This document shows, piece after piece, positions 43,658-58,026 of a DNA stretch of 64,000 nt. Source of the stretch: Macrostomum lignano. Taxonomy: Eukaryota. The DNA lies in the NCBI GenBank assembly GCA_002269645.1, contig NIVC01000029.1:1329834-1393833 (forward strand). The letters are read 5' to 3'. Every line of letters begins with the position of its first letter. Position 1 is the first letter of the stretch. Under the pieces are notes generated by a model. The model made no database searches, had not been told where the DNA came from, and saw only the letters and a list, made by a program, of their open reading frames with translations. A program made the position numbers and the translations under genes.

Positions 43658-45604
43658 ATGCCGACCAAAAGCCGAAGCTGGTACAGCTCGCATCACCGCC
43701 AAGCAAGAGTACCTCAACAACCAAACAGTCGTCCACATGGCCAGCAGTACCAAGGTGTGCGTTCGGCTGTGAGGCGACTATCTCCAGAACATGGCCGGCA
43801 GTTTGATCGCCAGCGTGACGGCGATGTCAGATCTAGAAGCCGCCATCGCCAAAGAGACCGCGCTACGCAGGACAGGACGGGCGGCGACCGGCAACAACGT
43901 CGGAATGCAGGTGGGTCGCTGACAACCGCCGCGTCCGGAGTCGCCCGCCAAGTCAAACAGCTGTTTCGTGCTGCTCACCACCTGGAAAATTGGCAGGTGA
44001 CACCATCTTCGATCCGACTAAAGTCTCAGCAGCTGAAAACACTAATCAGGCCTGCAGTGCCCACGGAATCGACAAAATCGCGGATTGCTGAGAACGCCGA
44101 TCAGTGGGAAGTCAGCACGCTAGACACAATGCAGAGCCATTATGAGATCAGCATCCATCATCTAGCTGCTGAACTTCTGGAAGCCAGGAAGGACGCTGAC
44201 CCTTCTGATTGGGAAACCGGCTGGCAAGTCGGTTTTCACTGGGCGGCGAAGGACCTCGGCAGAAGATTCAGCTACAGCCCTGATCTGCTGCAATACCGGC
44301 TGAAAAAAATGTCCATCGAGCTGAAGGTACCTGAATTTACTGCTAACAAAGGTAGGACTATCTCTTCTTTTGATACTGTGATTGTAAGCAACCAAACCAC
44401 CAGCTCTATGGGGGTTCCCGTTTCAAACCTCTTGTCTGGGGTGGTGGGTTCGAATCAACCCCACCAAGCCGCCAGCCCTGTGACAACTGAGCAGGGGAGG
44501 GAGCAACCAGCAGGGAATCGTCCCTCCAGCCCTTCAACGGGCATGGAAGAATCTCCCGACTGGCGAGGCTTTAACGAGGAACCGAGCATGCTAAGCCATA
44601 CGGACGAGGACAACCAAGCTTGCCCGCCGATTTTTCCGACAGAAGAGCCGCCTGAAGGGCTCAATTCGCAAATGCAGGGTCCAGTTGCCTGTGACCAGGG
44701 GCTGGACACGGGGGTGGTCTGTGACCAGACACCTCCACCTGCAAACTCCATTGCTGCTGATCAAAACGAATCAGCTATTTCAATACCTGCCATCTTGACT
44801 TCGAGTCGTCAACAGCAGAGTCAAGTCGCCTGTGACCAGGGGCTTGACACGGGGGTGGTCTGTGACCAGACATCCCCAGCTGCTGCTAATAGCAACAACA
44901 TCGATGCCAGCCAAGCTGACTCTTTCGTGTCTTTTGCGACACCCACCGACAACGTTGCATTTTTACAGAGTAGATTTGCTTGCGCTGAGCCACCCAGGCT
45001 TGCCAGTGACAGCAATAGGGACAGTCTTGAGCTGACCCCTCCTCGATCGGCACTTGCTCAACCAAGCCAGATTAACGTCCATAGGGGACTTAAGAAAGAC
45101 TGGAAACTGACCCCTATCGAAAAGTCAACGATCGCGATCGGCGATGAGAGTCTCTCTGAGCCCGGGCAAGCGCACCCAGATGTACAATTTGAAATTTTTC
45201 CGAATCTACGCGCTGAGAACCTAATCAGGGTGCTGCGTGAGCAGTTGAAAAGCCCTAGCTCAGCTGTCAAAGCGGTCATTCTCTTCCCTTGTGGTCATGA
45301 CCTGTCGAGACAATTTGAAGGTGTCCTCGACAAACAGCTCACGACAATCGTGAATCATTGTCGCAAGGCCTTTCCAGAGGCAAACATCTACACACTTGAC
45401 TCAGTGGTGGATGCCGAGGCAACGGACAGCGTCCGAAGCAATGTGGAAAAATTGAACCGCCATGCCCAGAATCTCAACCAGAAGGGGCACATGTCACTAC
45501 CCAGACAGGGTTTGACCTTCCTGTCAGACAAGGTCACACTATCTGACCAATCGGCCTTGGAGGTCTTCAGGATTGTCTATGGCAAAGTACAAAAAAACTT
45601 GTAG
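43658..45604 (+). CDS. PLE ORF1 (copy D)
   Basis: Same translation as copy B. Confidence 0.8.
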   Translation: MPTKSRSWYSSHHRQARVPQQPNSRPHGQQYQGVRSAVRRLSPEHGRQFDRQRDGDVRSRSRHRQRDRATQDRTGGDRQQRRNAGGSLTTAASGVARQVKQLFRAAHHLENWQVTPSSIRLKSQQLKTLIRPAVPTESTKSRIAENADQWEVSTLDTMQSHYEISIHHLAAELLEARKDADPSDWETGWQVGFHWAAKDLGRRFSYSPDLLQYRLKKMSIELKVPEFTANKGRTISSFDTVIVSNQTTSSMGVPVSNLLSGVVGSNQPHQAASPVTTEQGREQPAGNRPSSPSTGMEESPDWRGFNEEPSMLSHTDEDNQACPPIFPTEEPPEGLNSQMQGPVACDQGLDTGVVCDQTPPPANSIAADQNESAISIPAILTSSRQQQSQVACDQGLDTGVVCDQTSPAAANSNNIDASQADSFVSFATPTDNVAFLQSRFACAEPPRLASDSNRDSLELTPPRSALAQPSQINVHRGLKKDWKLTPIEKSTIAIGDESLSEPGQAHPDVQFEIFPNLRAENLIRVLREQLKSPSSAVKAVILFPCGHDLSRQFEGVLDKQLTTIVNHCRKAFPEANIYTLDSVVDAEATDSVRSNVEKLNRHAQNLNQKGHMSLPRQGLTFLSDKVTLSDQSALEVFRIVYGKVQKNL

Positions 45605-45633
45605 GTTTTAGGAATGCGGCTAGCAACCAAGTC

Positions 45634-47320
45634 TTGAACTTATCGAATTATCGTCTTTCTGACTGCGAAACCGAAATTTTAGGAATGGGGAAGAACTTTG
45701 TGCCAGCCCCAATTGTTATGGGGTCCAGCGTCCTTTCTGACTCCATCAAGGTTTTCAAGCAGAGAATAGTTCTTAACTCCCTGCTTCAGCGTCGCACGTG
45801 TGCTTTCACCCCGCGCATCCCTTATACTGGCCGAGCTTCGATCCCCAACATCAACTTGGACAAGTGGCGCTCTCACAGAGACCTTTTTGAAAGCCTTGAC
45901 AGGATTAGAATTCCAAGAATCATACACAACAAGCCAAACCTTCAGGAGCAGCAGAGAATGGCACTGAAGACTCTTCGAGACAATAGCAGTATCGTCATTA
46001 AACCTGCCGACAAGGGCAGCAATATGGTCGTTTTGAATCGAACAGATTACATACTGGAAGCTAACAGGCAGCTCTCCAACAGGACCTTCTACCAACCCCT
46101 TGACACTGCAATGAGCGCCCAGACCAGTGCCATTATCAAAGCCATTTTTCAAGATCTTAAAGAAGAAAAGATAATTACTAATCATCAATACTCGCAACTG
46201 ATTCCGCCAACTATTCCAAGAGATCGAATTTTTTACCTTTTGCCAAAAATCCATAAGGATCCCGAAGAATGGCCTACTCCTGGAGTGCCTCCTGGGAGAC
46301 CCATTGTCTCGGACTGCAGCTCGGAAAGCTACATGAGCGCCAAATTTATCGATCTCTTCCTACAGCCGATCGCTAAGGAACAAGACTCCTTCATCCGAGA
46401 CACGGACCACTTTCAAGCGGCTATTAATGATTTGATTTTTGAAAAAGACGAAAATGTCTTTCTGGTTACAATGGATGTTGAATCCCTGTACACCAATATT
46501 CCCACTGATAAGGGGATGGACGCCATTAGAGATGCCTTTCAAACATTTCCCCAAACCTCAAGGCCAGATAACCATCTTCTTGCGCTCCTGGACATTAACT
46601 TGAACAAAAATGATTTTGTTTTCAACGACACGCGCTACCTTCAAATCAAAGGCACAAGCATGGGAAAGGCCTTTGCGCCATCCTACGCCAACATATTTAT
46701 GTCTGCCTGGGAATCCAAAGCTTTAGAAACTGCTCCGTTTACCCCTCGTTTCTTCAAGCGCTACATTGACGACATTTTTATGGTCTTCGTCGGCACTGAA
46801 GACGAACTAAAGGAGATGCACAAGCATCTGAATGAGTTCGATTGCAACATCCGACTCACGATGCAATACAGCAAAGAGAAGGTTCACTTCCTGGACTGCT
46901 GTGTCAGTCTGACTGACGAAGGCAACAACAAGAGACTTTCGTGCTCAATCTACTTCAAACCCACCGATTCACGCCAGCTTTTAAATCCGGGGTCTTTTCA
47001 CCCAAAGCACACTTTCAAAGGTATACTGAAATCTCAGTTCCTCCGTTACGCTCGCCGTTGCACATTTAAAGAAGACTTCGATGAGGCCAGCAGCAGCTTA
47101 ACAAGCATCCTGAAGAAACAAGGATATTCTGTCCGCTTAATCAGGGATTCTAAAAAATCTGCCCTCATCCAGCTGGGCCTCTACATTGATGGTCGGTGGG
47201 AGTTCGGCTTCCAGGATTGTGGCAATCTAAGCTGCCGTCCTTGCAGAGAGCACGGGCATTTTGGCCAAGTTTGTTTAGGGTCCAGCGCTACAAAAATGAT
47301 TTACAAAATTTGTCAAAAAG
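45634..47320 (+). pseudogene. PLE ORF2 copy D, truncated before the GIY-YIG domain by the LTR element
   Basis: Matches the other copies up to ...TGTCAAAAAG (47320), then switches to the LTR start TGTAGAG. Confidence 0.9.
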
Positions 47321-48395
47321 TGTAGAGTGTTCTACCTCCCGTAAGAAGACATAAAAGTGTTAATGTACTACTCACACATTTTATTTAGTAGTAAATTGAA
47401 GAGCATGAATAAAGGTATGCTTTGAACTATAAGTATATTCGGACTAACCAATAGGAAGAGAGAGACCTCGAGCATGCTAATTTTAGAAATCACCCAATCA
47501 CGTGCGACCAACAACTGTCAATTCAAACCCCACCTTCAAGTCATCATTTTGTTTGCACTCGGGTTGCACCCGGATGAACCAATCAAAGTCTACCAGCTAC
47601 GGTAACCAATCATGCGCTTTTACAGTAGACTAGTTGCGCAACTTTCTACCCTGTCATGCTTGACAGCCACCGAATCGTGACCCTTTGACATTTGCGAAGA
47701 CAGTGATGTACGACCTCGAGAGAGGTCTGAACGCCTATAAATACAAGTGGTCCGGAACGGACCCGGAGCCAGAAAATCTCCAAGGAGAGAAGCTCCGAAG
47801 AGGAAGCTCTAGTGAAGCCTTCCTGAAGAAACTCGCGTCGTGGACGAGTTCTTGCGGTAAGCCTTACTCATTTGCGCCCGTTGGTTGAGACGTCTCGCTC
47901 AAGTCTATTGAGACTTGAGTTTATTTGAGTCTGTTGAGACTCTTGAGTCTGTTTAGACTCCACTGGTTGCAGTCTCCAGAAGGACTGCCCCTGATAGATC
48001 TTAGAAGACTATCAGTGGTTTCCGGAGCCATACCTAGAGTGCATAGAGGCACTACTAGAAGGAGTAGGCTTATATTAAACCGCAGTTTGGCGCAGGGATC
48101 CCCATTGTTAATTTGGAAGCTTCCGATTGGTCCGAACTACAGATACCGGCCGGCAAGAAGTCAAGAGGACAAAGGAGATAACGGACCAGATCAACTGTTA
48201 CCAGGCGCCTAAACTTCCTGAAGGAAAGGAAAGTTACTGATCGCGATACTACGGACGAGGATTATTACGAGAGCTCTCATTTAAGGACTCAAAGGTAATT
48301 GAATACCTTCATTTGATTACTGGGTTGCCTAGCTACAGAGCTAGAAGTGATTGTTCCTTGATTACAGTTGAGGACTGGTAATAAGGAACACATCA
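47321..48395 (+). repeat. 5' LTR
   Basis: TGTAGAGTG...GGAACACATCA; about 99% identical to 56953-58026 by eye. Contains several CCAAT boxes (~47448-47612) and TATAAATA (47736-47743). Confidence 0.95.
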
Positions 48396-48396
48396 A

Positions 48397-48408
48397 TTGG
48401 TGATCTCG
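48397..48408 (+). promoter_or_regulatory. Putative primer-binding site (TTGGTGATCTCG)
   Basis: TGG directly after the 5' LTR is complementary to tRNA 3' CCA. It resembles the tRNA-Trp PBS TGGTGACCCCG with two mismatches; tRNA identity uncertain. Confidence 0.55.
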
Positions 48409-49091
48409 CCCTCTCGGCACTACTCAAACTTTTGAGCAATAGCCTGGCCAAGCTATTGTAAAGTGACGAAAGAGCGACTTCATTAATTTTGCGCGCACGT
48501 GTTAGAGGTAACACTTTTCGACACTTTTCGATTTTTGTACGATTTGAAACTCGAGTAAAAGCTTAGGTATACAGGCTTGAGTACCTGTCAATTTTGAGTA
48601 ACGTTTGAGCACGCGTGTTAAATTTTTGTTTTTAACGAGCTCGAGCAAGAGTAAACCTTAAACAAAACCGAAAACAACGTCCGGTACACTGAAAACAAAC
48701 CGAAAAATAATCAATACACACTAAAACAAAACCGAAATTAAAAACACTTGACGAAAGCTAAAACAAACCGAAATTTGATAAAACGTGACAAGGCACGTCA
48801 CGAAGACAAGAAAGGCCTTTGAAAAAAGCAATAAGCAGCTGCACTTCAAGCACTTTAAAGATACACTTTGCGGGACGCCGCATAAGTGCGAAAATCAGCC
48901 AGCGAATAAGAGGTCAGAAAAAGCAGCCAAAAGCCGAATTCCGCTCAAGGTCAGACATAACAAATTGAGGTGTCAAAAGCGCCGCGAGACAATCAGTTAC
49001 AACCGAAGTTTATTTCGAAAGAAACACCACACTGGAAGATCCATTACAAATCGACCCAGACCTAGAGCTACCGTTCTATCCCATCAACAAC

Positions 49092-51392
49092 ATGGCGCGG
49101 CGCAATCCAACGGTGCACAGAGATATCAAAGAGACAGTTGGCACCTTTTCTATGGAAAAAGACTTTAACACCTTTGTTGATCATTTTGACCTGGTATGTA
49201 GGGAATACAACCTACAAAATCCAGAAAAAGCGCAACTGTTGCCACCACTCCTCCAAGGCACTGCACGAGAGATTTATGGTAAACTAGATGCGGCAACACA
49301 GCAAAACTACCCAGCATTAATCATTCAACTGCGCGCGCATTTCAACCGCTGTGGCACAAACAGATCAGTGCTACTGCACAAGTTGCATAACAGAAGGATG
49401 CAGCCAACCGAATCCTTCCTGACCTTTGTGGACGACATCCGTCAGATAATTAAGGCACTGCATCAGCCAACACTGCCAGCTGCAGACCAACCACCTCTGG
49501 GTGCGGCAGAATTAGCCGCTAGAGAGCGACAGCGATTGATGGATCGCGAACAAAATCTGATTCTGCACGTAATAAACAATGCACAGCCGTCACTCCGAGA
49601 TAGACTTCTACGCGAAAACATTGAAACCGAGGAAGACCTTTTACGGTGCGGAATGCAGTGGGAAGCAAGCGCTCCACTAATGACAACCGGCAACACAGAA
49701 GTGCAGAAACTGACACAGCAACTAAACAAACTGATGCAACATCAAACAGCCGTTATCGCCGAACAAAAAAGACGAAATGAACGAGCCCAAGCCAGATGCT
49801 ATTACTGTGGACGAGAAGGACACTACCAAATTAATTGTCCTCATCGGTCAACAAGAAATGACATGCAGCGACAGCCATTCAACAGAAGGAAGCCGCAAAA
49901 ACCATGGCAACAACATCAAAATTGGCAGCAGCAAAACACGAAACGCTTCGGAAACAATGGCTACAGACCGCGAAACACCAGATACATGCCCAAGCAACCA
50001 ACGCAAGCGATGCAACGATATGCAAACGCCATCACGTACACACCGGAAAGCGAACAGCAAGAGCAGCAAGTCTTCACGATAGACGACTTAGAAATGGACT
50101 TCACTATCAATGAAATCGACTGGCTCGATGTGGAGAGCAGCGAAAAGACAAAAAACATCAGCATGGTCGAAATGAAAGAAACTAACATTGACAGCGAAGA
50201 AGAAAAGACAGAAGTGAGCACAGAAAAAACATTGCCAAGCGACATCAGTGAAAGAAAAGAAGAAACAAACAAAGGCAACGACAAAGAACTGGCAACGAAG
50301 GATGACAAAGAAAGAAGCAACGACGGAAATACAGAGATGGAAGAAGAACAGCAAGAAGAAAGCAGCGATCACGATTATGAGATGCAGAATGACGCTGATG
50401 ACAACCAAGCCGCCGACAAAGAACATGAAGACGGAAGGCACAAAGGAATGGAAGAAAGAAATCTAAGCTCCGACAGCGATCAATGCTACGAGATCCGATA
50501 TAAACGAAATGGTGAAGCCTACATTCAAACGGTCGACTACAAGGCCGAAGTGAGGTACCGCAGACAATGGAGTGACACAACTACAACATCGGAAGAAAGC
50601 AAGGAAGAAAATGATGAAGACGACAAGCAGCGGAACGAATCGGATGCCTTGCGCTCGGAAACGCCAATGGAACAAGAGGAAGAATACGATGCGGACGTAG
50701 AAGATAACGAATGGCAGCCGCAGCCAATGCCAGCAAAGACAACGGCAACGTTCAGAAAATGGCGACTCTGGATATTCTGGATCATCATAATACTACTGAC
50801 GGCAGTAGTCACCAAAGCAACAGCAATGGAAAAACCAATGATATGTCCAACGGATGCGCATATCCAACCGATGATCTACAAGATACCAACCGACATCAAA
50901 TGCAGCTACTTCAAGACAAACCAGACGAAGCCAAAAAAGATCACAATCGATCTCTACAAAGCCAACATCAAGAAGCATCGACAACTTGGAATCGTGTGCT
51001 TCAGAGACAAGCACCTAGTCGAAAAAATATGGCGAGGACAATGGAACAGAATCCGATTCCGACAGCATGAGCTACATGTGTCGCACGCTGACTGCCTACG
51101 ATGGAACCAGACATTGTTCTCCAAAGATGGTGTACTAGAACCTGATGAAAAGGTCGGCAACGCACAACTCTTCCGAACAAAGAATGTGGCAAACGGTCGA
51201 TATGTCCACTATAATGAAAGATGGCCTGACTACACGGCACGCAACAGCTACCTAATCAGGAATGTTCCGTTCTACTACAATCCGTACGAGAAAATGGAAT
51301 CACTGCAACTGCAACTAAGTGAATGCCGATACAGCGAAGGATGGTGCCAACGCCGATATTGCGAAATGCAGAACTCTACAGCCTACCGCTGA
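49092..51392 (+). CDS. Gag (capsid-like region, CCHC knuckle) + acidic linker + internal signal/TM + N-terminal part of the envelope ectodomain
   Basis: CYYCGREGHYQINC knuckle; Asp/Glu-rich spacer; WRLWIFWIIIILLTAVVTKATA hydrophobic segment (50760-50825); then a Cys/Trp-rich region with N-glycosylation sequons. Continues into the next ORF via a -1 shift near 51345. Confidence 0.88.
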   Translation: MARRNPTVHRDIKETVGTFSMEKDFNTFVDHFDLVCREYNLQNPEKAQLLPPLLQGTAREIYGKLDAATQQNYPALIIQLRAHFNRCGTNRSVLLHKLHNRRMQPTESFLTFVDDIRQIIKALHQPTLPAADQPPLGAAELAARERQRLMDREQNLILHVINNAQPSLRDRLLRENIETEEDLLRCGMQWEASAPLMTTGNTEVQKLTQQLNKLMQHQTAVIAEQKRRNERAQARCYYCGREGHYQINCPHRSTRNDMQRQPFNRRKPQKPWQQHQNWQQQNTKRFGNNGYRPRNTRYMPKQPTQAMQRYANAITYTPESEQQEQQVFTIDDLEMDFTINEIDWLDVESSEKTKNISMVEMKETNIDSEEEKTEVSTEKTLPSDISERKEETNKGNDKELATKDDKERSNDGNTEMEEEQQEESSDHDYEMQNDADDNQAADKEHEDGRHKGMEERNLSSDSDQCYEIRYKRNGEAYIQTVDYKAEVRYRRQWSDTTTTSEESKEENDEDDKQRNESDALRSETPMEQEEEYDADVEDNEWQPQPMPAKTTATFRKWRLWIFWIIIILLTAVVTKATAMEKPMICPTDAHIQPMIYKIPTDIKCSYFKTNQTKPKKITIDLYKANIKKHRQLGIVCFRDKHLVEKIWRGQWNRIRFRQHELHVSHADCLRWNQTLFSKDGVLEPDEKVGNAQLFRTKNVANGRYVHYNERWPDYTARNSYLIRNVPFYYNPYEKMESLQLQLSECRYSEGWCQRRYCEMQNSTAYR

Positions 51393-54300
51393 GTCCAACG
51401 TATCATCCAGACTATCGATGGCAGATAGTGCACAGAGCCGATCCACACTACGAAGAGCCATCAAAGTCACGACAATATTTCTTCGCTTGGAAGGTTGAGA
51501 CGGAAATCGACTGTCAACTACAAAAGTATCACACAGTGGAAGGAGGCCTACTGTCAAACACGTTTTTGGCAAAGTCAGGAGACTTGGCACTGACGTTTCA
51601 AAAGAAACCAGTCGAGCAAAAACTGAAATGCAAGGATACAGACAAGACACTATTCATCTCGGAACAAGAGATACCAGTCTACGTAAAAGAAGACGACAAA
51701 CAAACCTTTCTGGCGATCATCAACGGAACGTATCAACAGCAGGAACAACAGAACAGACGACGACGAGACATCGAACGTCCCAAACTGGTGTCAAACCGAC
51801 TACTGTCAGCAAAGATAACGGCTTTGGATCACAATCTACACAACCAGTTAAACCACTTGCATCGAACACTGGTCCAGCTAACTTGCAAAATGCACGCAAT
51901 CAACTTAAATTATGCCAGACAAAACTACTATGTCAACCCTACGATGACTTTTCGTAAAATCACCGGAATGACGAACGTTTTGGCAGTTCCAATATACGAG
52001 CATCTGTTGATATACAAGTGCACGCCGATACAGCACTTTAACATCTTGCCGTCGAACACGTCAACAACCTGCTACGACAAGCCAAGGATTGAAGCGTTCT
52101 ACGAAGGAAAACGAATTCAGGGATTCTTGGACACGGTACACAACATCATAGTTGGCACCGCAATACCGAGACCCTGCACCACGGCAGCAAACTACTATCA
52201 ACTGGACAATGCACTACACGTCATCAAAACAACTGGAACGACAGCAAACATCACAGAACCGGAAGTAATCGTCGACGAAAACTACGACATGGAGGATTTG
52301 AAAATCCGATTCAACAGAACGAAGTATACGCCATTCGCCGATATCCAACTTGACGAGATAACACCAGGATGGACGATCAACGACTTCTTGCAAGCGTTCA
52401 TCACCCAACGCAAGATGATTCACCAGCTGTTCACAAGAAAGGACAAAGGAACCGGGACAGGAAGATTTCCCGTCCTTGTTTCAATGGACAGCGCCATCAA
52501 ATCATTTTGGACAAACAGCTTCTGGGAGCTGCTCAATGGAAGAGGCAGTCTCTATCAAGGATTCATCTTCTACGGTGCTTGCATTGTGTGGATTGTCACG
52601 GCAATCTTCATCATTTCGTCAATCGTACGGTGCTTCAGTCAAACTTGTCCAAAAGCTAAGAAGACAGTTAATGCCATAATGCAAAGAACGATAACGGAAG
52701 GCGACAACAGTTTAGAACTAACAGAAACTGCACATCGTGAAGTTCAAGGGCAACCGACACTAGCAACGCGGCTATATCCATCGATTCCGACAACACCAAC
52801 GGCACCAAGAATACAACCACCCAACTATCAAGCAGAACAGCAAGACCCAAAATGGCCAGAGAACTACGTATGTACTCTACACGCCGAAATTGGCAAAGCC
52901 ATGGCTCAAGTGGTAATCAACAATCTACCATGTCGAGCGCTACTCGACTCCGGCAGCTCCATCACAGTTATATCAAAACAACTGTGCAACAAGCTACGAC
53001 TTGCTCTACGGCCAGCAACAATCGCAGTTGCAGGAGCAGGAGGACATTCGCTAAACATTCTGGGAAAAGCCGACATTGATTTAAGAATCGCTAATAAACA
53101 CTTGACAGTTCCAACGTACGTCATCGACAGACTCCCAAACCAGGACGTTATTGTTGGCATCGACACGTTCAAGCAGCTTCGACTACCATTGACCTTCGAC
53201 TTCAATAAGCAAACGTTCAAGATCGACTCGGTAGAACAACCATTGATCAACCAGATCCGAGTACTACCAAAAGTAACATTGCAACAAGATGTCATCATCC
53301 AACCGGAGAGCGCCTGCTGGATAAAGGCAAAGGCAACTAACGCAACGGAGGAAGCAATGATATTCGACCCAAACAGAAGAGTCACGGCTAAACACCAAAT
53401 TATGATGCCTACGGCACTAGTACTGGTTGCAAAAGATAAACAGCTGCCAGTACAAATATTCAACCCGAACACAGAAACGGTTCATCTACGACAAGGAATG
53501 TGCATCGGTCATCTCAACACCCAAGCATCGGTTATGCTGATTGAGCAAGCGACTCCACGACTAACAGAGGAAGAATTTCAAAAGAAGATCAATTTGGATG
53601 ACAGCCCGATTACGGAACAGCAAAAGAGGAAAGTTCGACAGCTGTTGTGGAAGTACAACGACGCTTTCTGCCACCATGACTACGACATCGGACGAGCCAA
53701 GGACATCAAACAGGAAATCAAACTTCTGCCGCACACGGAACCAATTCAGTGCAAACCGTACCCGATCGCCAAGCATCTGCAACAGCACTTCGATGAGATT
53801 ATCGACAAAATGCTGAAACACGGCATCATCAGCAAAGCCATTTCAGCATACTCATCACCATGTCTCTTGGTACAAAAGAAGGAGACTAACGAAAGACGAC
53901 TCGTATGTGACTTCAGACTACTGAACAAGTACATACCGACGGATCAGCAAAGCCTACCGAAGATCTCCGAACTACTAGCAAAGCTCAACACGGCAAAATT
54001 GTTCACAGTGTTCGACCTACGTCATGGATTTTGGCAAATTGAAATCGAGAAAGAGTCACGACAGTACACGGCTTTCAAAACCTACAATGGACAAGTATAC
54101 GAGTACAATCGATCGCCGATGGGACTCAGCAACAGCCCAGCAACGATGAGCCGACTAACAGCATACATGCTTGCAGGATGCACGAACCTGTTGCACTATG
54201 TTGACGACATCTTGGCCTACGGAGAAGACTTCGAACGACTCTATGAAGCGACGGAGAAGGCCCTCGCGCTTATACAACGTCAAGGTCTGAAGCTACAACC

Positions 54301-55501
54301 AACTAAATGCAAATTCTTCCGAGACAACGTGCGTTACCTGGGACATCAGGTGACAGCCAAAGGAATTTCACCGGACCCAGACAACGTGGATAAAGTGAAA
54401 AAGTTTCCTACGCCAACTAGCAAAACGAAGGTCCAATCATTTCTTGGACTTGCGCAATACTTCCGAAAGTTCTTACCCAACTTCGCGAAGACAGCAAAGC
54501 CGCTGTACGACCTGCTCAAGTTCGACAAATGGAAGCAGGAGAATTGGACACAAAAGCAACAAGAAAGTTTTGACGAAATCAAACGACAGCTGACATCAGA
54601 CGCACTGCTACAGCATCCGGACTTCGACAAACCCTTCATCATCGAGACAGACGCCTCAGGAACGGGACTCGGAGCAGTCCTACTACAGGAAACTGAAGAC
54701 AAAAAGGAACGACCTATAGCCTACGTCAGTCGAGCACTTAAACCGAATGAGACAAAATGGTCAGCTACGGAACGAGAACTACTAGGAGTTCTGTTCGCCC
54801 TACGACAGTTTCACTACTACATCTATGGATCTCCATTACAGACGATAGTACGCACAGATCACGCACCGCTGACCTACGTCGTAACTACAAAAGGACAAAC
54901 AAACAACCGACTCATCAGGATGACACTCAAGATCCAGGACTACAACTACAAGCTCGTCTACAAACCAGGAATTACTAACAAGGCCGCGGACGCCCTGTCA
55001 AGAGCCTACGAAGTCAACGCCATTCATCCAATCCCTAACATCAAGGAATTGGTGGATGAGACTGAACACGACAACTTCTACATAGCAGTTAAAAACAACG
55101 ACAAGGACATCAAGCTCAGCCCCGTGGAACGAAAATTCCTGCGCAAGCAGCGACAACATTTAACAATCAACAAGTCACGACTCTACTGGATGAGTGACAA
55201 CAAACCTAAAATCTACATGCCATATTCGTTTAGGCAGGCAATTCTCAACGAGCTGCACGACAACCCACTCGCTGGACACCTGTCGGCAGCCAAAACCATT
55301 GCAAGAGTGGAGCAATACTACTTTTGGCCAAGCATGCATGGCGACATCAAGCAGTATTGCAACAACTGCCACTCATGCGCAGCATCAAAGACAGGACGAC
55401 GACAAAAACCACAGCTACAATCGATACCAAGTCAACAACTATGGACTGTCTCAGCATCGACATCACCGGACCGCTGCCACCGAGCTGTCTCCATGGCATA
55501 G
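51323..55501 (+). CDS. Envelope C-terminal part (gB-like) + TM + late-domain tail + protease + RT + RNase H + integrase zinc finger
   Basis: RRRR furin-like site (51755-51766); gB-like core; TM at 52559-52627; LLDSGS protease (~52940); YVDD (54197-54208); ETDASG / ELLGVLFAL / TDHAPL RNase H; H-x6-H...C-x2-C-x2-C integrase zinc domain. Confidence 0.92.
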   Translation: MPIQRRMVPTPILRNAELYSLPLSPTYHPDYRWQIVHRADPHYEEPSKSRQYFFAWKVETEIDCQLQKYHTVEGGLLSNTFLAKSGDLALTFQKKPVEQKLKCKDTDKTLFISEQEIPVYVKEDDKQTFLAIINGTYQQQEQQNRRRRDIERPKLVSNRLLSAKITALDHNLHNQLNHLHRTLVQLTCKMHAINLNYARQNYYVNPTMTFRKITGMTNVLAVPIYEHLLIYKCTPIQHFNILPSNTSTTCYDKPRIEAFYEGKRIQGFLDTVHNIIVGTAIPRPCTTAANYYQLDNALHVIKTTGTTANITEPEVIVDENYDMEDLKIRFNRTKYTPFADIQLDEITPGWTINDFLQAFITQRKMIHQLFTRKDKGTGTGRFPVLVSMDSAIKSFWTNSFWELLNGRGSLYQGFIFYGACIVWIVTAIFIISSIVRCFSQTCPKAKKTVNAIMQRTITEGDNSLELTETAHREVQGQPTLATRLYPSIPTTPTAPRIQPPNYQAEQQDPKWPENYVCTLHAEIGKAMAQVVINNLPCRALLDSGSSITVISKQLCNKLRLALRPATIAVAGAGGHSLNILGKADIDLRIANKHLTVPTYVIDRLPNQDVIVGIDTFKQLRLPLTFDFNKQTFKIDSVEQPLINQIRVLPKVTLQQDVIIQPESACWIKAKATNATEEAMIFDPNRRVTAKHQIMMPTALVLVAKDKQLPVQIFNPNTETVHLRQGMCIGHLNTQASVMLIEQATPRLTEEEFQKKINLDDSPITEQQKRKVRQLLWKYNDAFCHHDYDIGRAKDIKQEIKLLPHTEPIQCKPYPIAKHLQQHFDEIIDKMLKHGIISKAISAYSSPCLLVQKKETNERRLVCDFRLLNKYIPTDQQSLPKISELLAKLNTAKLFTVFDLRHGFWQIEIEKESRQYTAFKTYNGQVYEYNRSPMGLSNSPATMSRLTAYMLAGCTNLLHYVDDILAYGEDFERLYEATEKALALIQRQGLKLQPTKCKFFRDNVRYLGHQVTAKGISPDPDNVDKVKKFPTPTSKTKVQSFLGLAQYFRKFLPNFAKTAKPLYDLLKFDKWKQENWTQKQQESFDEIKRQLTSDALLQHPDFDKPFIIETDASGTGLGAVLLQETEDKKERPIAYVSRALKPNETKWSATERELLGVLFALRQFHYYIYGSPLQTIVRTDHAPLTYVVTTKGQTNNRLIRMTLKIQDYNYKLVYKPGITNKAADALSRAYEVNAIHPIPNIKELVDETEHDNFYIAVKNNDKDIKLSPVERKFLRKQRQHLTINKSRLYWMSDNKPKIYMPYSFRQAILNELHDNPLAGHLSAAKTIARVEQYYFWPSMHGDIKQYCNNCHSCAASKTGRRQKPQLQSIPSQQLWTVSASTSPDRCHRAVSMA

Positions 55502-56409
55502 CCTACACCTACATCCTAACAGCCTTGGACATTTTCTCAAAGTTTGCTATTGCCATACCAATACCGGACATCACAGCTCAGACAGTGGCAATGGGTTTCT
55601 TCAACGACATCATCTGCAAGTACGGTACGCCAAAGAACCTCACATCGGACAATGGATCGCAGTTTACGTCTCAACTCTTTCAGCAAGTGGTGAAGATCCT
55701 CAACATCACGCAGATCTACACATCGACCTACAATCCGAAGGCGAACATGGTTGAAAGGTTTCACCGCAACCTACACGAGATGATTACACACTTCGCGCAT
55801 CAACAACCGGACGACTGGATCATCTATCTGCAAGCAGTAACAATGGCCTACAACAGCGCTATTCATCGATCAACGGACAATACGCCATTCTTTCTAATGT
55901 TTGGGCGAGACTTCCAGCCGCCAAACCTATTGGCACAGCAACTACTACCATCGCAATATGTGGAAGTCCCGACGTCCATTCAAAAGTTCGTCACGCAACT
56001 ACACCTCGCATGGAAAGTAGCCAAGCACAACATCGACAATCAGGTGGCTCTAACCACCGGCACCGACACGAGATCGACAACTCTGACAGCCGGCGACATC
56101 GTCTACCTGCACTATCCGCCGCAACAGACGCACAAACACGCACAGAAGTACAAAGGACCATATCGAGTGGTCCAACTAACGTCACCGACAACGGCACGCC
56201 TGGCCAATGTGCAAGATCCTCATCAGCACCAATTCTACGTGCACATTCATCGACTAAAGAAGATCAACACTGACACGACAACATTTTTACCGTCACTAGG
56301 CAACGCTGATCGCACGCGTTCGGCGAACCGCCACATCGCAACAAAACACGAGGAGACACAAACATCAACCGAGAACCAGCACCATGGCTACAATCTGCGA
56401 CCTCGTTAA
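55440..56409 (+). CDS. Integrase catalytic core + GPY/F module (reached by a -1 shift near 55443)
   Basis: LSIDITGPLP, SDNGSQF, MVERFHRNL (DDE) and YKGPYRV. Confidence 0.9.
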
Positions 56410-56520
56410 GTTGCGAAAACAACCCGTGTAGAGACCGGGTCAGAATAGCTCTACAGCTTCGCAAGCTTGTCGTAAGAGGCGACTAATCTGAGCGACTTCA
56501 AACTTCAAGCGACAACGACA

Positions 56521-56733
56521 ATGGGCAACGCACTGTCCAAACAGGCGCCCCAACTACAGCAACTCTACGAATGCCCAATATGTTTAACTGATGACTTGGC
56601 TGTCAAGCCACCAATTATTTGTGAAAACAGACATCGCATATGCGGACAATGTTTAAGCGACTCACATTATATTCAGCTCTGGCAGAATTACCCGATAGGT
56701 AGAAGTAGTTTGCGGCAGTGCGCCTATTGTTAG
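56521..56733 (+). CDS. Small RING-finger-like protein with an N-myristoylation motif, inside the LTR element
   Basis: MGNALSK; CPIC...PPIICENRH.ICGQC...CAYC. In-frame readthrough of TAG 56731 adds CQYC, with a stop at 56802. Confidence 0.7.
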   Translation: MGNALSKQAPQLQQLYECPICLTDDLAVKPPIICENRHRICGQCLSDSHYIQLWQNYPIGRSSLRQCAYC

Positions 56734-56952
56734 TCTTGGCGCACATGTCAATACTGTAACCAAAAACATTTTATTTGCATGCGTATACTTACCTTTAAAT
56801 AACTTTTATAACCAACGCTCTTAACTACCCATTACTAAATACCTGTAACACTTATGACAAATGATTATTATAAAGACATGCTTGAACTTTTTATGCGTTT
56901 CAATCCTCTCTTTAAAACTCGGGACGAGTTTTTTTGTAAACATGGGAGATTT

Positions 56953-58026
56953 TGTAGAGTGTTCTACCTCCCGTAAGAAGACATAAAAGTGTTAATGTAC
57001 TACTCACACATTTTATTTAGTAGTAAATTGAAGAGCATGAATAAAGGTATGCTTTGAACTATAAGTATATTCGGACTAACCAATAGGAAGAGAGAGACCT
57101 CGAGCATGCTAATTTTAGAAATCACCCAATCACGTGCGACCAACAACTGTCAATTCAAACCCCACCTTCAAGTCATCATTTTGTTTGCACTCGGGTTGCA
57201 CCCGGATGAACCAATCAAAGTCTACCAGCTACGGTAACCAATCATGCGCTTTTACAGTAGACTAGTTGCGCAACTTTCTACCCTGTCATGCTTGACAGCC
57301 ACCGAATCGTGACCCTTTGACATTTGCGAAGACAGTGATGTACGACCTCGAGAGAGGTCTGAACGCCTATAAATACAAGTGGTCCGGAACGGACCCGGAG
57401 CCAACAATCTCCAAGGGAGAGAAGCTCCGAAGAGGAAGCTCTAGTGAAGCCTTCCTGAAGAAACTCGCGTCGTGGACGAGTTCTTGCGGTAAGCCTTACT
57501 CATTTGCGCCCGTTGGTTGAGACGTCTCGCTCAAGTCTATTGAGACTTGAGTTTATTTGAGTCTGCTGAGACTCTTGAGTCTGTTTAGACTCCACTGGTT
57601 GCAGTCTCCAGAAGGACTGCCCCTGATAGATCTTAGAAGACTATCAGTGGTTTCCGGAGCCATACCTAGAGTGCATAGAGGCACTACTAGAAGGAGTAGG
57701 CTTATATTAAACCGCAGTTTGGCGCAGGGTACCCATTGTTAATTTGGAAGCTTCTTATTGGTCCGAACTACAGATACCGGCCGGCAAGAAGTCAAGAGGA
57801 CAAAGGAGATAACGGACCAGATCAACTGTTACCAGGCGCCTAAACTTCCTGAAGGACAGGAAAGTTACTGATCGCGATACTACGGACGAGGATTATTACG
57901 AGAGCTCTCATTTAAGGACTCAAAGGTAATTGAATACCTTCATTTGATTACTGGGTTGCCTAGCTACAGAGCTAGAAGTGATTGTTCCTTGATTACAGTT
58001 GAGGACTGGTAATAAGGAACACATCA
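56953..58026 (+). repeat. 3' LTR
   Basis: Near-identical to the 5' LTR; preceded by a weak polypurine tract ATGGGAGA. Confidence 0.95.

Follow-up and report, generated by a model that had tools for sequence, protein, structure and literature searches.

Can the cytoplasmic tail of an envelope fusogen be the place where a retroelement recruits the host ESCRT machinery? This question is raised by an LTR element at positions 47321 to 58026 of a 64,000-nt stretch of Macrostomum lignano DNA (the whole stretch is hereafter called the window). The Env tail of this element contains the words LYPSI, PTAP and PPNY. PTAP binds TSG101, PPxY binds Nedd4-family WW domains, and LYPx(n)L binds ALIX. A first-pass annotation had interpreted the three words as a budding module that was relocated from Gag to the Env-Pol junction and that independently supports extracellular particle release. 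The features of the element are compiled in Table 1.

Table 1. Positions of the features of the LTR element within the window.
Feature	Position	Strand	Remarks
5' LTR	47321..48395	+	99.2% identity to 3' LTR over 1076 columns; TG...CA ends
Primer binding site (PBS)	48398..48409	+	same 12-mer as listed for Mlig_errantivirus_2 (PMC13524379, supplement file 2)
Gag	49092..50771	+	capsid, CCHC knuckle 49797-49844, acidic linker; lacks Gly-2, PTAP and PPxY
TM1	50772..50828	+	probable internal signal sequence behind a basic cluster
Class III (gB-like) fusogen ectodomain	50835..52558	+	furin-type RRRR 51755-51766; frame change near 51.3-51.4 kb in window copy
TM2, Env membrane anchor	52559..52615	+	Kyte-Doolittle 2.43
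Cytosolic spacer (Env tail)	52616..52867	+	TM2 to predicted protease N-terminus; two Cys beside the membrane; topology deduced from single TM2 and necessarily cytosolic protease
VNAI, putative element-protease site	52667..52678	+	17 aa past TM2; same word as RT/IN junction; no pattern match here in subfamily B
LYPSI, ALIX-type phi-YPx[L/I]	52772..52786	+	aa 484-488; YPSI in 40/40 subfamily A loci; aligns with IYP[K/R]I of subfamilies B and C
PTAP, TSG101-type	52796..52807	+	aa 492-495; 39/40 subfamily A loci, one PPAP; upstream of YPxI in 4/5 B copies and the sole C copy
PPNY, NEDD4 WW-type PPxY	52817..52828	+	aa 499-502; P, P and Y constant across 18 distinct tails, x being N, I, G or T; no PPxY in the tails of B and C
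VCTL, putative protease N-terminal cleavage site	52868..52879	+	suggested by pattern enrichment near protease start
Pol: protease, RT, RNase H, integrase	52901..56409	+	second frame change near 55.2-55.5 kb in window copy
Accessory RING ORF	56521..56733	+	MGxxxS start; early end in window copy
3' LTR	56953..58026	+	LTR comparison, TG...CA ends

The element belongs to the Ty3/gypsy group (Metaviridae), as is evident from the TG...CA LTRs, the PBS, the CCHC Gag and the order PR-RT-RNaseH-IN. The complete order of domains is Gag CCHC knuckle, acidic linker, TM1, ectodomain with furin site, TM2, tail, PR, RT, RNase H and IN. With an Env of class III ectodomain located between gag and pol and a hydrophobic segment on each of its sides, it is a GAG-ENV-POL element of the gB type. 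At the window copy no target-site duplication was found and the flanks differ, which is a property of this one insertion. This copy is interrupted by two frame changes. The element is multicopy, with at least 40 genomic DNA matches at 92-100% (40 of 79 candidates were scored). Several natural copies form one open frame of about 2460-2540 aa, and a single gag-env-pol polyprotein was therefore deduced. The single frame implies a 1:1:1 supply of Gag, Env and Pol. Among named proteins, the nearest one belongs to Macrostomum lignano (96%); the first homologue search and the ectodomain-profile search among longer proteins returned P0002 alone. With respect to expression, no holder is recorded as RNA, and 14 holders are RNA by guess alone.

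According to the model of a natural copy (pLDDT 75, 25 sequences), the Env ectodomain is gB-like and has a class III fold. The modelled structure matched herpesvirus gB with a Foldseek E-value of 2e-20, at low global TM-scores of 0.22-0.37, and the match to Pfam PF24664 is weak and below the cut-off (E 7e-05). The ectodomain contains 12 Cys and 5-6 sequons, and basic residues are located before TM1 and behind TM2. In ORF 51323-55501 of the window copy, aa 413-431 is the only segment exceeding a Kyte-Doolittle value of 1.6, and Pfam protease models span aa 527-623 with the catalytic LLDSG at aa 540 (52940-52954). The one TM2, the basic residues behind it and the protease downstream suggest that the tail is cytosolic and exposed.

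All three motifs were found where the first-pass annotation had placed them, in the common frame of ORF 51323-55501. The block from RLYPSI to PPNY lies 48-67 aa past TM2, counted from V435, as had been claimed, and LLDSG follows 38 aa downstream of it. They match the consensus PT/SAP, PPxY and YPx(n)L/I, LYPSI with a final I and not L; YPXL/I is accepted as an ALIX/PalA motif in the accessible text of PMC3244986 (citing Vincent 2003). In composition-preserving shuffles of the window's 92-aa tail, all three classes occurred together in six of 200,000 cases, whereas any single class was present in 14%. A database protein that is 99% identical (P0003) lacks exactly the 33 aa of the motif block (window 52737-52835), and the corresponding DNA is bounded by GT..AG. 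A spliced-out motif block was considered for this protein. No joint skipping the block was among those listed in contigs of four runs, which as contigs cannot prove absence, and a deletion at DNA level was found in 0 of the 17 loci with matches on either side of the block. The P0003 form is thus a probable gene-model artefact.

In the Macrostomum genome, the copies fall into subfamilies A, B and C. Within subfamily A, the copies of which are 88-100% identical, the arrangement YPSI..PxAP...PPxY is present in one frame in all 40 loci read, one of them having PPAP. The whole tail is in one frame in 31 of these 40 loci, which yielded 18 distinct DNA tails. Here, one of the ten motif-critical columns varies, compared to 31 of the 62 other tail columns (one-sided Fisher p 0.018), and silent changes were found at five of the ten. 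The residues between the motifs are nearly as fixed as the motifs themselves. Because of this, and because the copies are related, conservation within subfamily A is modest evidence.

The comparison with the sister subfamilies appears to be the stronger argument. Between A and B, the tail is 28% identical, compared to 65% for the ectodomain, 70% for the protease and 81% for RT-RNase H; the capsid lies within 65-81%. Despite this divergence of the tail, MYPSI of A aligns with IYPKI of B, and PTAP is located upstream of this word in B and downstream of it in A. IYP[KR]I is present in all five B copies and PTAP in four of them, the fifth having PNAP. The tails of B and C are 52% identical, and PTAP and IYPKI are unchanged in the one C copy. 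Both motifs occurred together in 345 (B) and 384 (C) of 200,000 tail shuffles. Single copies deviate from the consensus, namely L046 with PPAP and L032 with PNAP. A PPxY is lacking in the tails of B and C, which contain two motif classes. The combination of all three motifs is consequently particular to subfamily A. On the Gag side of TM1, B and C copies contain a PPPY or PPAY (L031 and L032, ORF aa 590; L035, ORF aa 121).

More distant relatives were collected by means of an Env-tail-protease query (best 150 of 173 matches) and a tail-blind RT-RNase H query (best 120 of 212). Of the resulting 270 proteins, 44 have an Env-profile match followed by a protease; removal of the own-family proteins P0002 and P0003 left 42. 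Ten of the 42 were possibly favoured by a search query that included the tail. The remaining tail-blind subset (n = 32) comprises proteins with a best match that lay clear of the motif block, together with those retrieved by the RT query. Eleven proteins with TM and without Env-profile match were excluded from all counts, although the tails of four of them (P0008, P0045, P0059 and P0064) contain motifs. Five rows were retained despite their weak TM scores. Env-less controls were 84 RT-selected rows, of which the 100 aa before the protease were scanned. Twelve rows without protease match were excluded, as was the rest, which had Env, TM or too little upstream sequence.

At least one motif is present in 16 of the 42 tails compared to 2.6 expected, a number that was reached by 0 of 2000 shuffles. 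Each class contributes: PT/SAP occurs five times (0.37 expected), PPxY eight times (0.91) and YPx[LI] nine times (1.47). It is specifically the fuller consensus forms that show the excess, with seven cases of phi-YPx[LI] (0.35 expected) and four of P[TS]APP (0.04). In the tail-blind subset, 10 of 32 tails have a motif (1.9 expected; 0 of 2000 shuffles). Among the env-less controls, which are only 32-40% identical in RT, two of 84 have a motif (3.4 expected); after clustering, this corresponds to 2 of 44 (Fisher p 0.003 versus the tail-blind subset). In the ectodomain and Pol of the relatives, the motifs are at background, and YPx[LI] is somewhat over-represented in the Gag parts (6 versus 2.1). 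Fifteen of 16 decoy patterns gave values near background; the exception, [TS]APP, overlaps PTAPP. Taken together, the decoys occur in 21 tails compared to 10.7 expected, and the tails are therefore richer in Pro-centred words than their shuffles.

Sixteen stretches found by RING matches contained no intact protease-bearing frame and yielded no tails for the comparison. Towards their ends, distant tails repeatedly contain a WP dipeptide (17 versus 5.3 expected; KWP, window 52853-52858). Furthermore, P0139, P0091, P0131, P0034, P0041 and P0015 contain two tandem protease-like domains behind the Env tail.

A quick tree of the ectodomain, which has long branches, places most motif-bearing rows in one Env clade that includes our own subfamilies. 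In this clade, 11 of 14 tails have a motif (1.1 expected), and 5 of 28 in the other (1.4 expected; reached by 21 of 2000 shuffles). Because the enrichment stems mostly from one clade, the motif counts are not independent events. Named hosts are few, namely Macrostomum (P0004, P0008) and nematodes (P0203, P0142). Inside the motif-rich clade the set of motifs varies from tip to tip, in line with the description of late domains in the accessible text of PMC7995964 as position-independent and exchangeable. The first-pass annotation had proposed to compare the conservation of the motifs with the divergence of the surrounding tail, and this comparison turned out in its favour: motifs were kept or re-made in a fast-diverging tail, with single-copy losses and a strong clade structure.

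The putative host partners were searched for in the Macrostomum genome. Matches were found for the TSG101 UEV domain (E 6.6e-44 to human) and for the ALIX V-domain, and WW domains precede HECT domains in the same orientation on several contigs (e.g. C158, C366, C59, C13 and C632). The host UEV domain (L064:1474-1863) keeps T58, Y68, N69, T92 and M95, but contains a His at the position of human Y63 and a Val at that of F142. All of these residues have a role in PTAP binding, and Y63 and F142 are part of the pocket. Due to the two exchanges, binding of PTAP in Macrostomum is not a given. A complex prediction with the host UEV exon and a 40-aa tail piece reached 0.02 (mark 0.34), which is no evidence for or against; for a PSAP in the host Hrs, an off-frame match only was found.

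Since the motifs are kept or re-made in a diverging tail, and are enriched in the spacer of relatives and not in env-less relatives, they behave like ESCRT/NEDD4-type docking sites that were presumably under selection. Chance words in a proline-rich linker, which would merely space the protease from the membrane, are a very improbable explanation. It is true that the tails contain 9.4% Pro, that a single class arises readily in shuffles of the window's tail, that pooled decoys exceed the shuffles as well, and that the copies of subfamily A are close relatives. However, this explanation has to account for the coincidence of all three classes, for their retention across a 28%-identical tail with a PPxY that varies at x only, and for a clade-wide excess of exact consensus forms which env-less controls do not show. 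More weight has to be given to a role of the same host proteins in the sorting or removal of Env-Pol by ubiquitination, MVB and lysosome, or in internal transfer, which would limit the surface fusogen or aid an intracellular step; we regard this role as a rather unlikely, albeit serious, alternative. In the tails of membrane proteins, PPxY drives endocytosis of ENaC and YPX3L lysosomal sorting of P2Y1, and the tail of herpes gB undergoes ubiquitination and sorting to MVBs (accessible text of PMC7995964). According to the part of PMC5478143 at hand, L1 ORF1p uses YPXnL and ALIX without leaving the cell. In addition, 26 of the 42 distant tails manage without any motif. What speaks against sorting is the enrichment of each of the three viral classes of late domain, which replace one another between lineages, while ordinary sorting signals show no enrichment; endocytic YxxPhi and dileucine readings were accordingly rejected. 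For an endocytic signal of the AP-2 type YxxPhi, the generic Y[^P]x[LI] was counted 14 times in the 42 tails (13.3 expected) and Y[^P]x[LIMFV] 21 times (22.3 expected), whereas YPx[LI] was counted nine times versus about 1.4; the acidic dileucine signal was found once (4.0 expected). Moreover, degradation via the tail would presumably degrade Pol too, which belongs to the same chain until cleavage.

A further alternative concerns the origin of the block, which might be a Gag p6-like peptide from the old gag/protease junction that was displaced when env inserted upstream. HIV p6 sits just before the protease, and so does the block, bounded by words that resemble protease sites; the PPxY of B and C copies, which lies towards Gag from TM1, would fit as well. 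Nevertheless, we consider displacement improbable, as such motifs precede the protease in just two of the 84 env-less gag-pol relatives, which at 32-40% RT identity include no true sister lineage. A late-domain excess was also sought in the NC-TM1 linkers of Env-bearing relatives and rejected, because these are not enriched (1 of 20). P0006, one of four Envs without a following protease in the record, still has a PSAP near the tail end. No Gag donor site was thus found for the relocation from Gag that had initially been proposed, which is not supported, and an origin in place or an arrival with the glycoprotein is likelier.

We therefore return to docking sites for budding. The motifs are probably ESCRT/NEDD4 late domains that drive the scission of particles which assemble on a polyprotein anchored in the membrane. 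TM1 would be an internal signal, and TM2 would stop the transfer and anchor the chain, with the gB-like domain in the lumen, so that Gag and Pol would both face the cytosol. Cleavage at TM1 would yield two membrane-bound chains, Gag-TM1 and Env-Pol, that face the cytosol. As Gag lacks Gly-2, the element presumably relies on its own TM segments to stay at the membrane. The flexible tail would recruit TSG101 via PTAP, ALIX via YPxI and a NEDD4-family ligase via PPxY. Judged from motif biology and selection, these proteins would bring in ESCRT-III, which would sever a particle at its neck as it buds off on the side away from the cytosol, be this the cell surface or the lumen of an internal compartment. 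Release outside the cell can be inferred, but independent support for it, as claimed initially, is an overstatement: a late domain indicates that ESCRT is recruited and not which membrane is cut, and L1 ORF1p is a precedent.

After budding, the protease of the element would free Pol just downstream of the motifs. In subfamily A, a cleavage-like word is found in three places, namely where the protease begins, between RT and IN, and 17 aa past TM2. In the 42 relatives, the pattern [VIA][NCSA][ATS][VIL] occurs 12 times near the protease start (3.2 expected); in the first 40 tail residues its excess is weak (5 versus 1.45 in 34 tails; 17 of 1000 shuffles). These words hint that in subfamily A the protease might also trim the tail, so that the motif block would perhaps be cut out as a small p6-like peptide. 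HIV p6 and the MLV R peptide are precedents for a peptide that is cut out after budding. Extended to the whole clade of invertebrate gag-env-pol elements, a tentative proposal emerges, which we put at somewhat below even chances: these elements might follow an undescribed budding scheme in which no matrix or Gag late domain is used, the polyprotein is threaded through the membrane, and the fusogen tail is the ESCRT platform. PTAP, YPxL/I and PPxY would have been gained, lost and reordered, and the tail would later be cut as a p6-like peptide, maybe switching the fusogen on.

Several observations concern other parts of the locus. In each of the three subfamilies, pol is followed by one or two ORFs for a RING finger (107 genomic matches). 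The window copy is 70 aa long, compared to about 220 aa elsewhere (L040:9060-9728; L031:9100-9750), and its MGxxxS start, which is of the myristoylation type, is found in subfamily A and not in B and C. The Atlas neighbours are viral RING proteins, albeit weak ones, and the ORF could be an element-borne E3 ligase. A likeness to arenavirus Z is not supported, since the MG start occurs in subfamily A alone and no late motif can be seen in the 222-aa form; the Atlas score to Z of 0.86 is a lead only. Diverged copies of the ORF are clustered on contigs C87, C1130, C2121, C3033 and C272, and L062 has three, which suggests that elements lie in tandem or were amplified locally. Window 48969-49091, ahead of the first Met, is open and conserved between A and B (DPLQIDPDL-like), with LPFY in A only; this hints at a non-AUG start. 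Finally, a repeat with a period of 4.5 kb extends over about 33.5-47.3 kb (33494, 37996, 42498, 47000; 100% over 322 bases) and reaches the 5' LTR. It carries an RT ORF (45547-47325), and the LTR element interrupts its last unit.

Our word searches of the literature retrieved no paper on late domains in a Ty3/gypsy Env tail; Sacco et al. 2022, reportedly the first description of nematode env-pol elements, could mention such. Elements of the gB-type GAG-ENV-POL organization are known from Platyhelminthes, Nematoda and Bryozoa, and a Macrostomum element is listed among them by Chary and Hayashi (PMC13524379), who in the accessible text call the mechanism of transmission elusive. Our element resembles this Platyhelminthes_Rhabditophora_Mlig_errantivirus_2 in the pol order, the gB-type Env between gag and pol, the multicopy state and the PBS 12-mer; as the PBS word, the Env type and the host of the nearest named protein (96%) agree, it may be the same element. 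The main text of PMC13524379 has no match for late domain, ESCRT, PTAP, budding, cytoplasmic, polyprotein or RING, the accessible part of PMC5408684 none for RING, and those of PMC5408684 and PMC4604429 contain nothing on these motifs. For errantiviruses, the use of ESCRT was not known as of 2012, and a YXXL-like motif was noted in gypsy Gag (accessible text of PMC3383448). The motif classes and the type of element are thus known, but their place is an undescribed one, where selection appears to have acted across a clade. Late domains selected clade-wide would be a concrete and cheap experimental handle in a laboratory flatworm. They would be evidence at the level of sequence that envelopes of the gB type have a function in actual particles, would add a fusogen tail to the capsid and matrix proteins as a site of late domains, and suggest how such envelope-carrying elements may bud from cells.

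Late domains are defined in the Gag of retroviruses and in structural proteins of other viruses, where they are position-independent and often combined (accessible text of PMC7995964). Retroviral Gag proteins (HIV-1 p6 with PTAP and YPXnL, EIAV p9, oncoretroviruses with PPXY) have the same three classes in a flexible proline-rich stretch before the protease. In contrast, the motifs of our element follow the Env anchor and, with TM1 cut, would travel with Env-Pol and not with Gag, which itself contains no PTAP, PPxY or Gly-2. LINE-1 ORF1p is a precedent for a retrotransposon with an ALIX-binding YPXnL, but has no envelope and one motif, and in the opinion of the authors is unlikely to be released from cells (accessible text of PMC5478143). 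A foamy virus resembles the element in that its Gag lacks a membrane-targeting signal and budding needs Env; its late motif, however, is in Gag (PMC7828637, in the part at hand), and Env, Gag and Pol are separate products. In bluetongue virus NS3, PSAP and PPXY are located outside the capsid protein, as they are here (accessible text of PMC7995964). NS3 is a glycoprotein that acts in non-lytic exit but, unlike the Env of our element, it is non-structural, no fusogen and not part of a Gag-Env-Pol chain.
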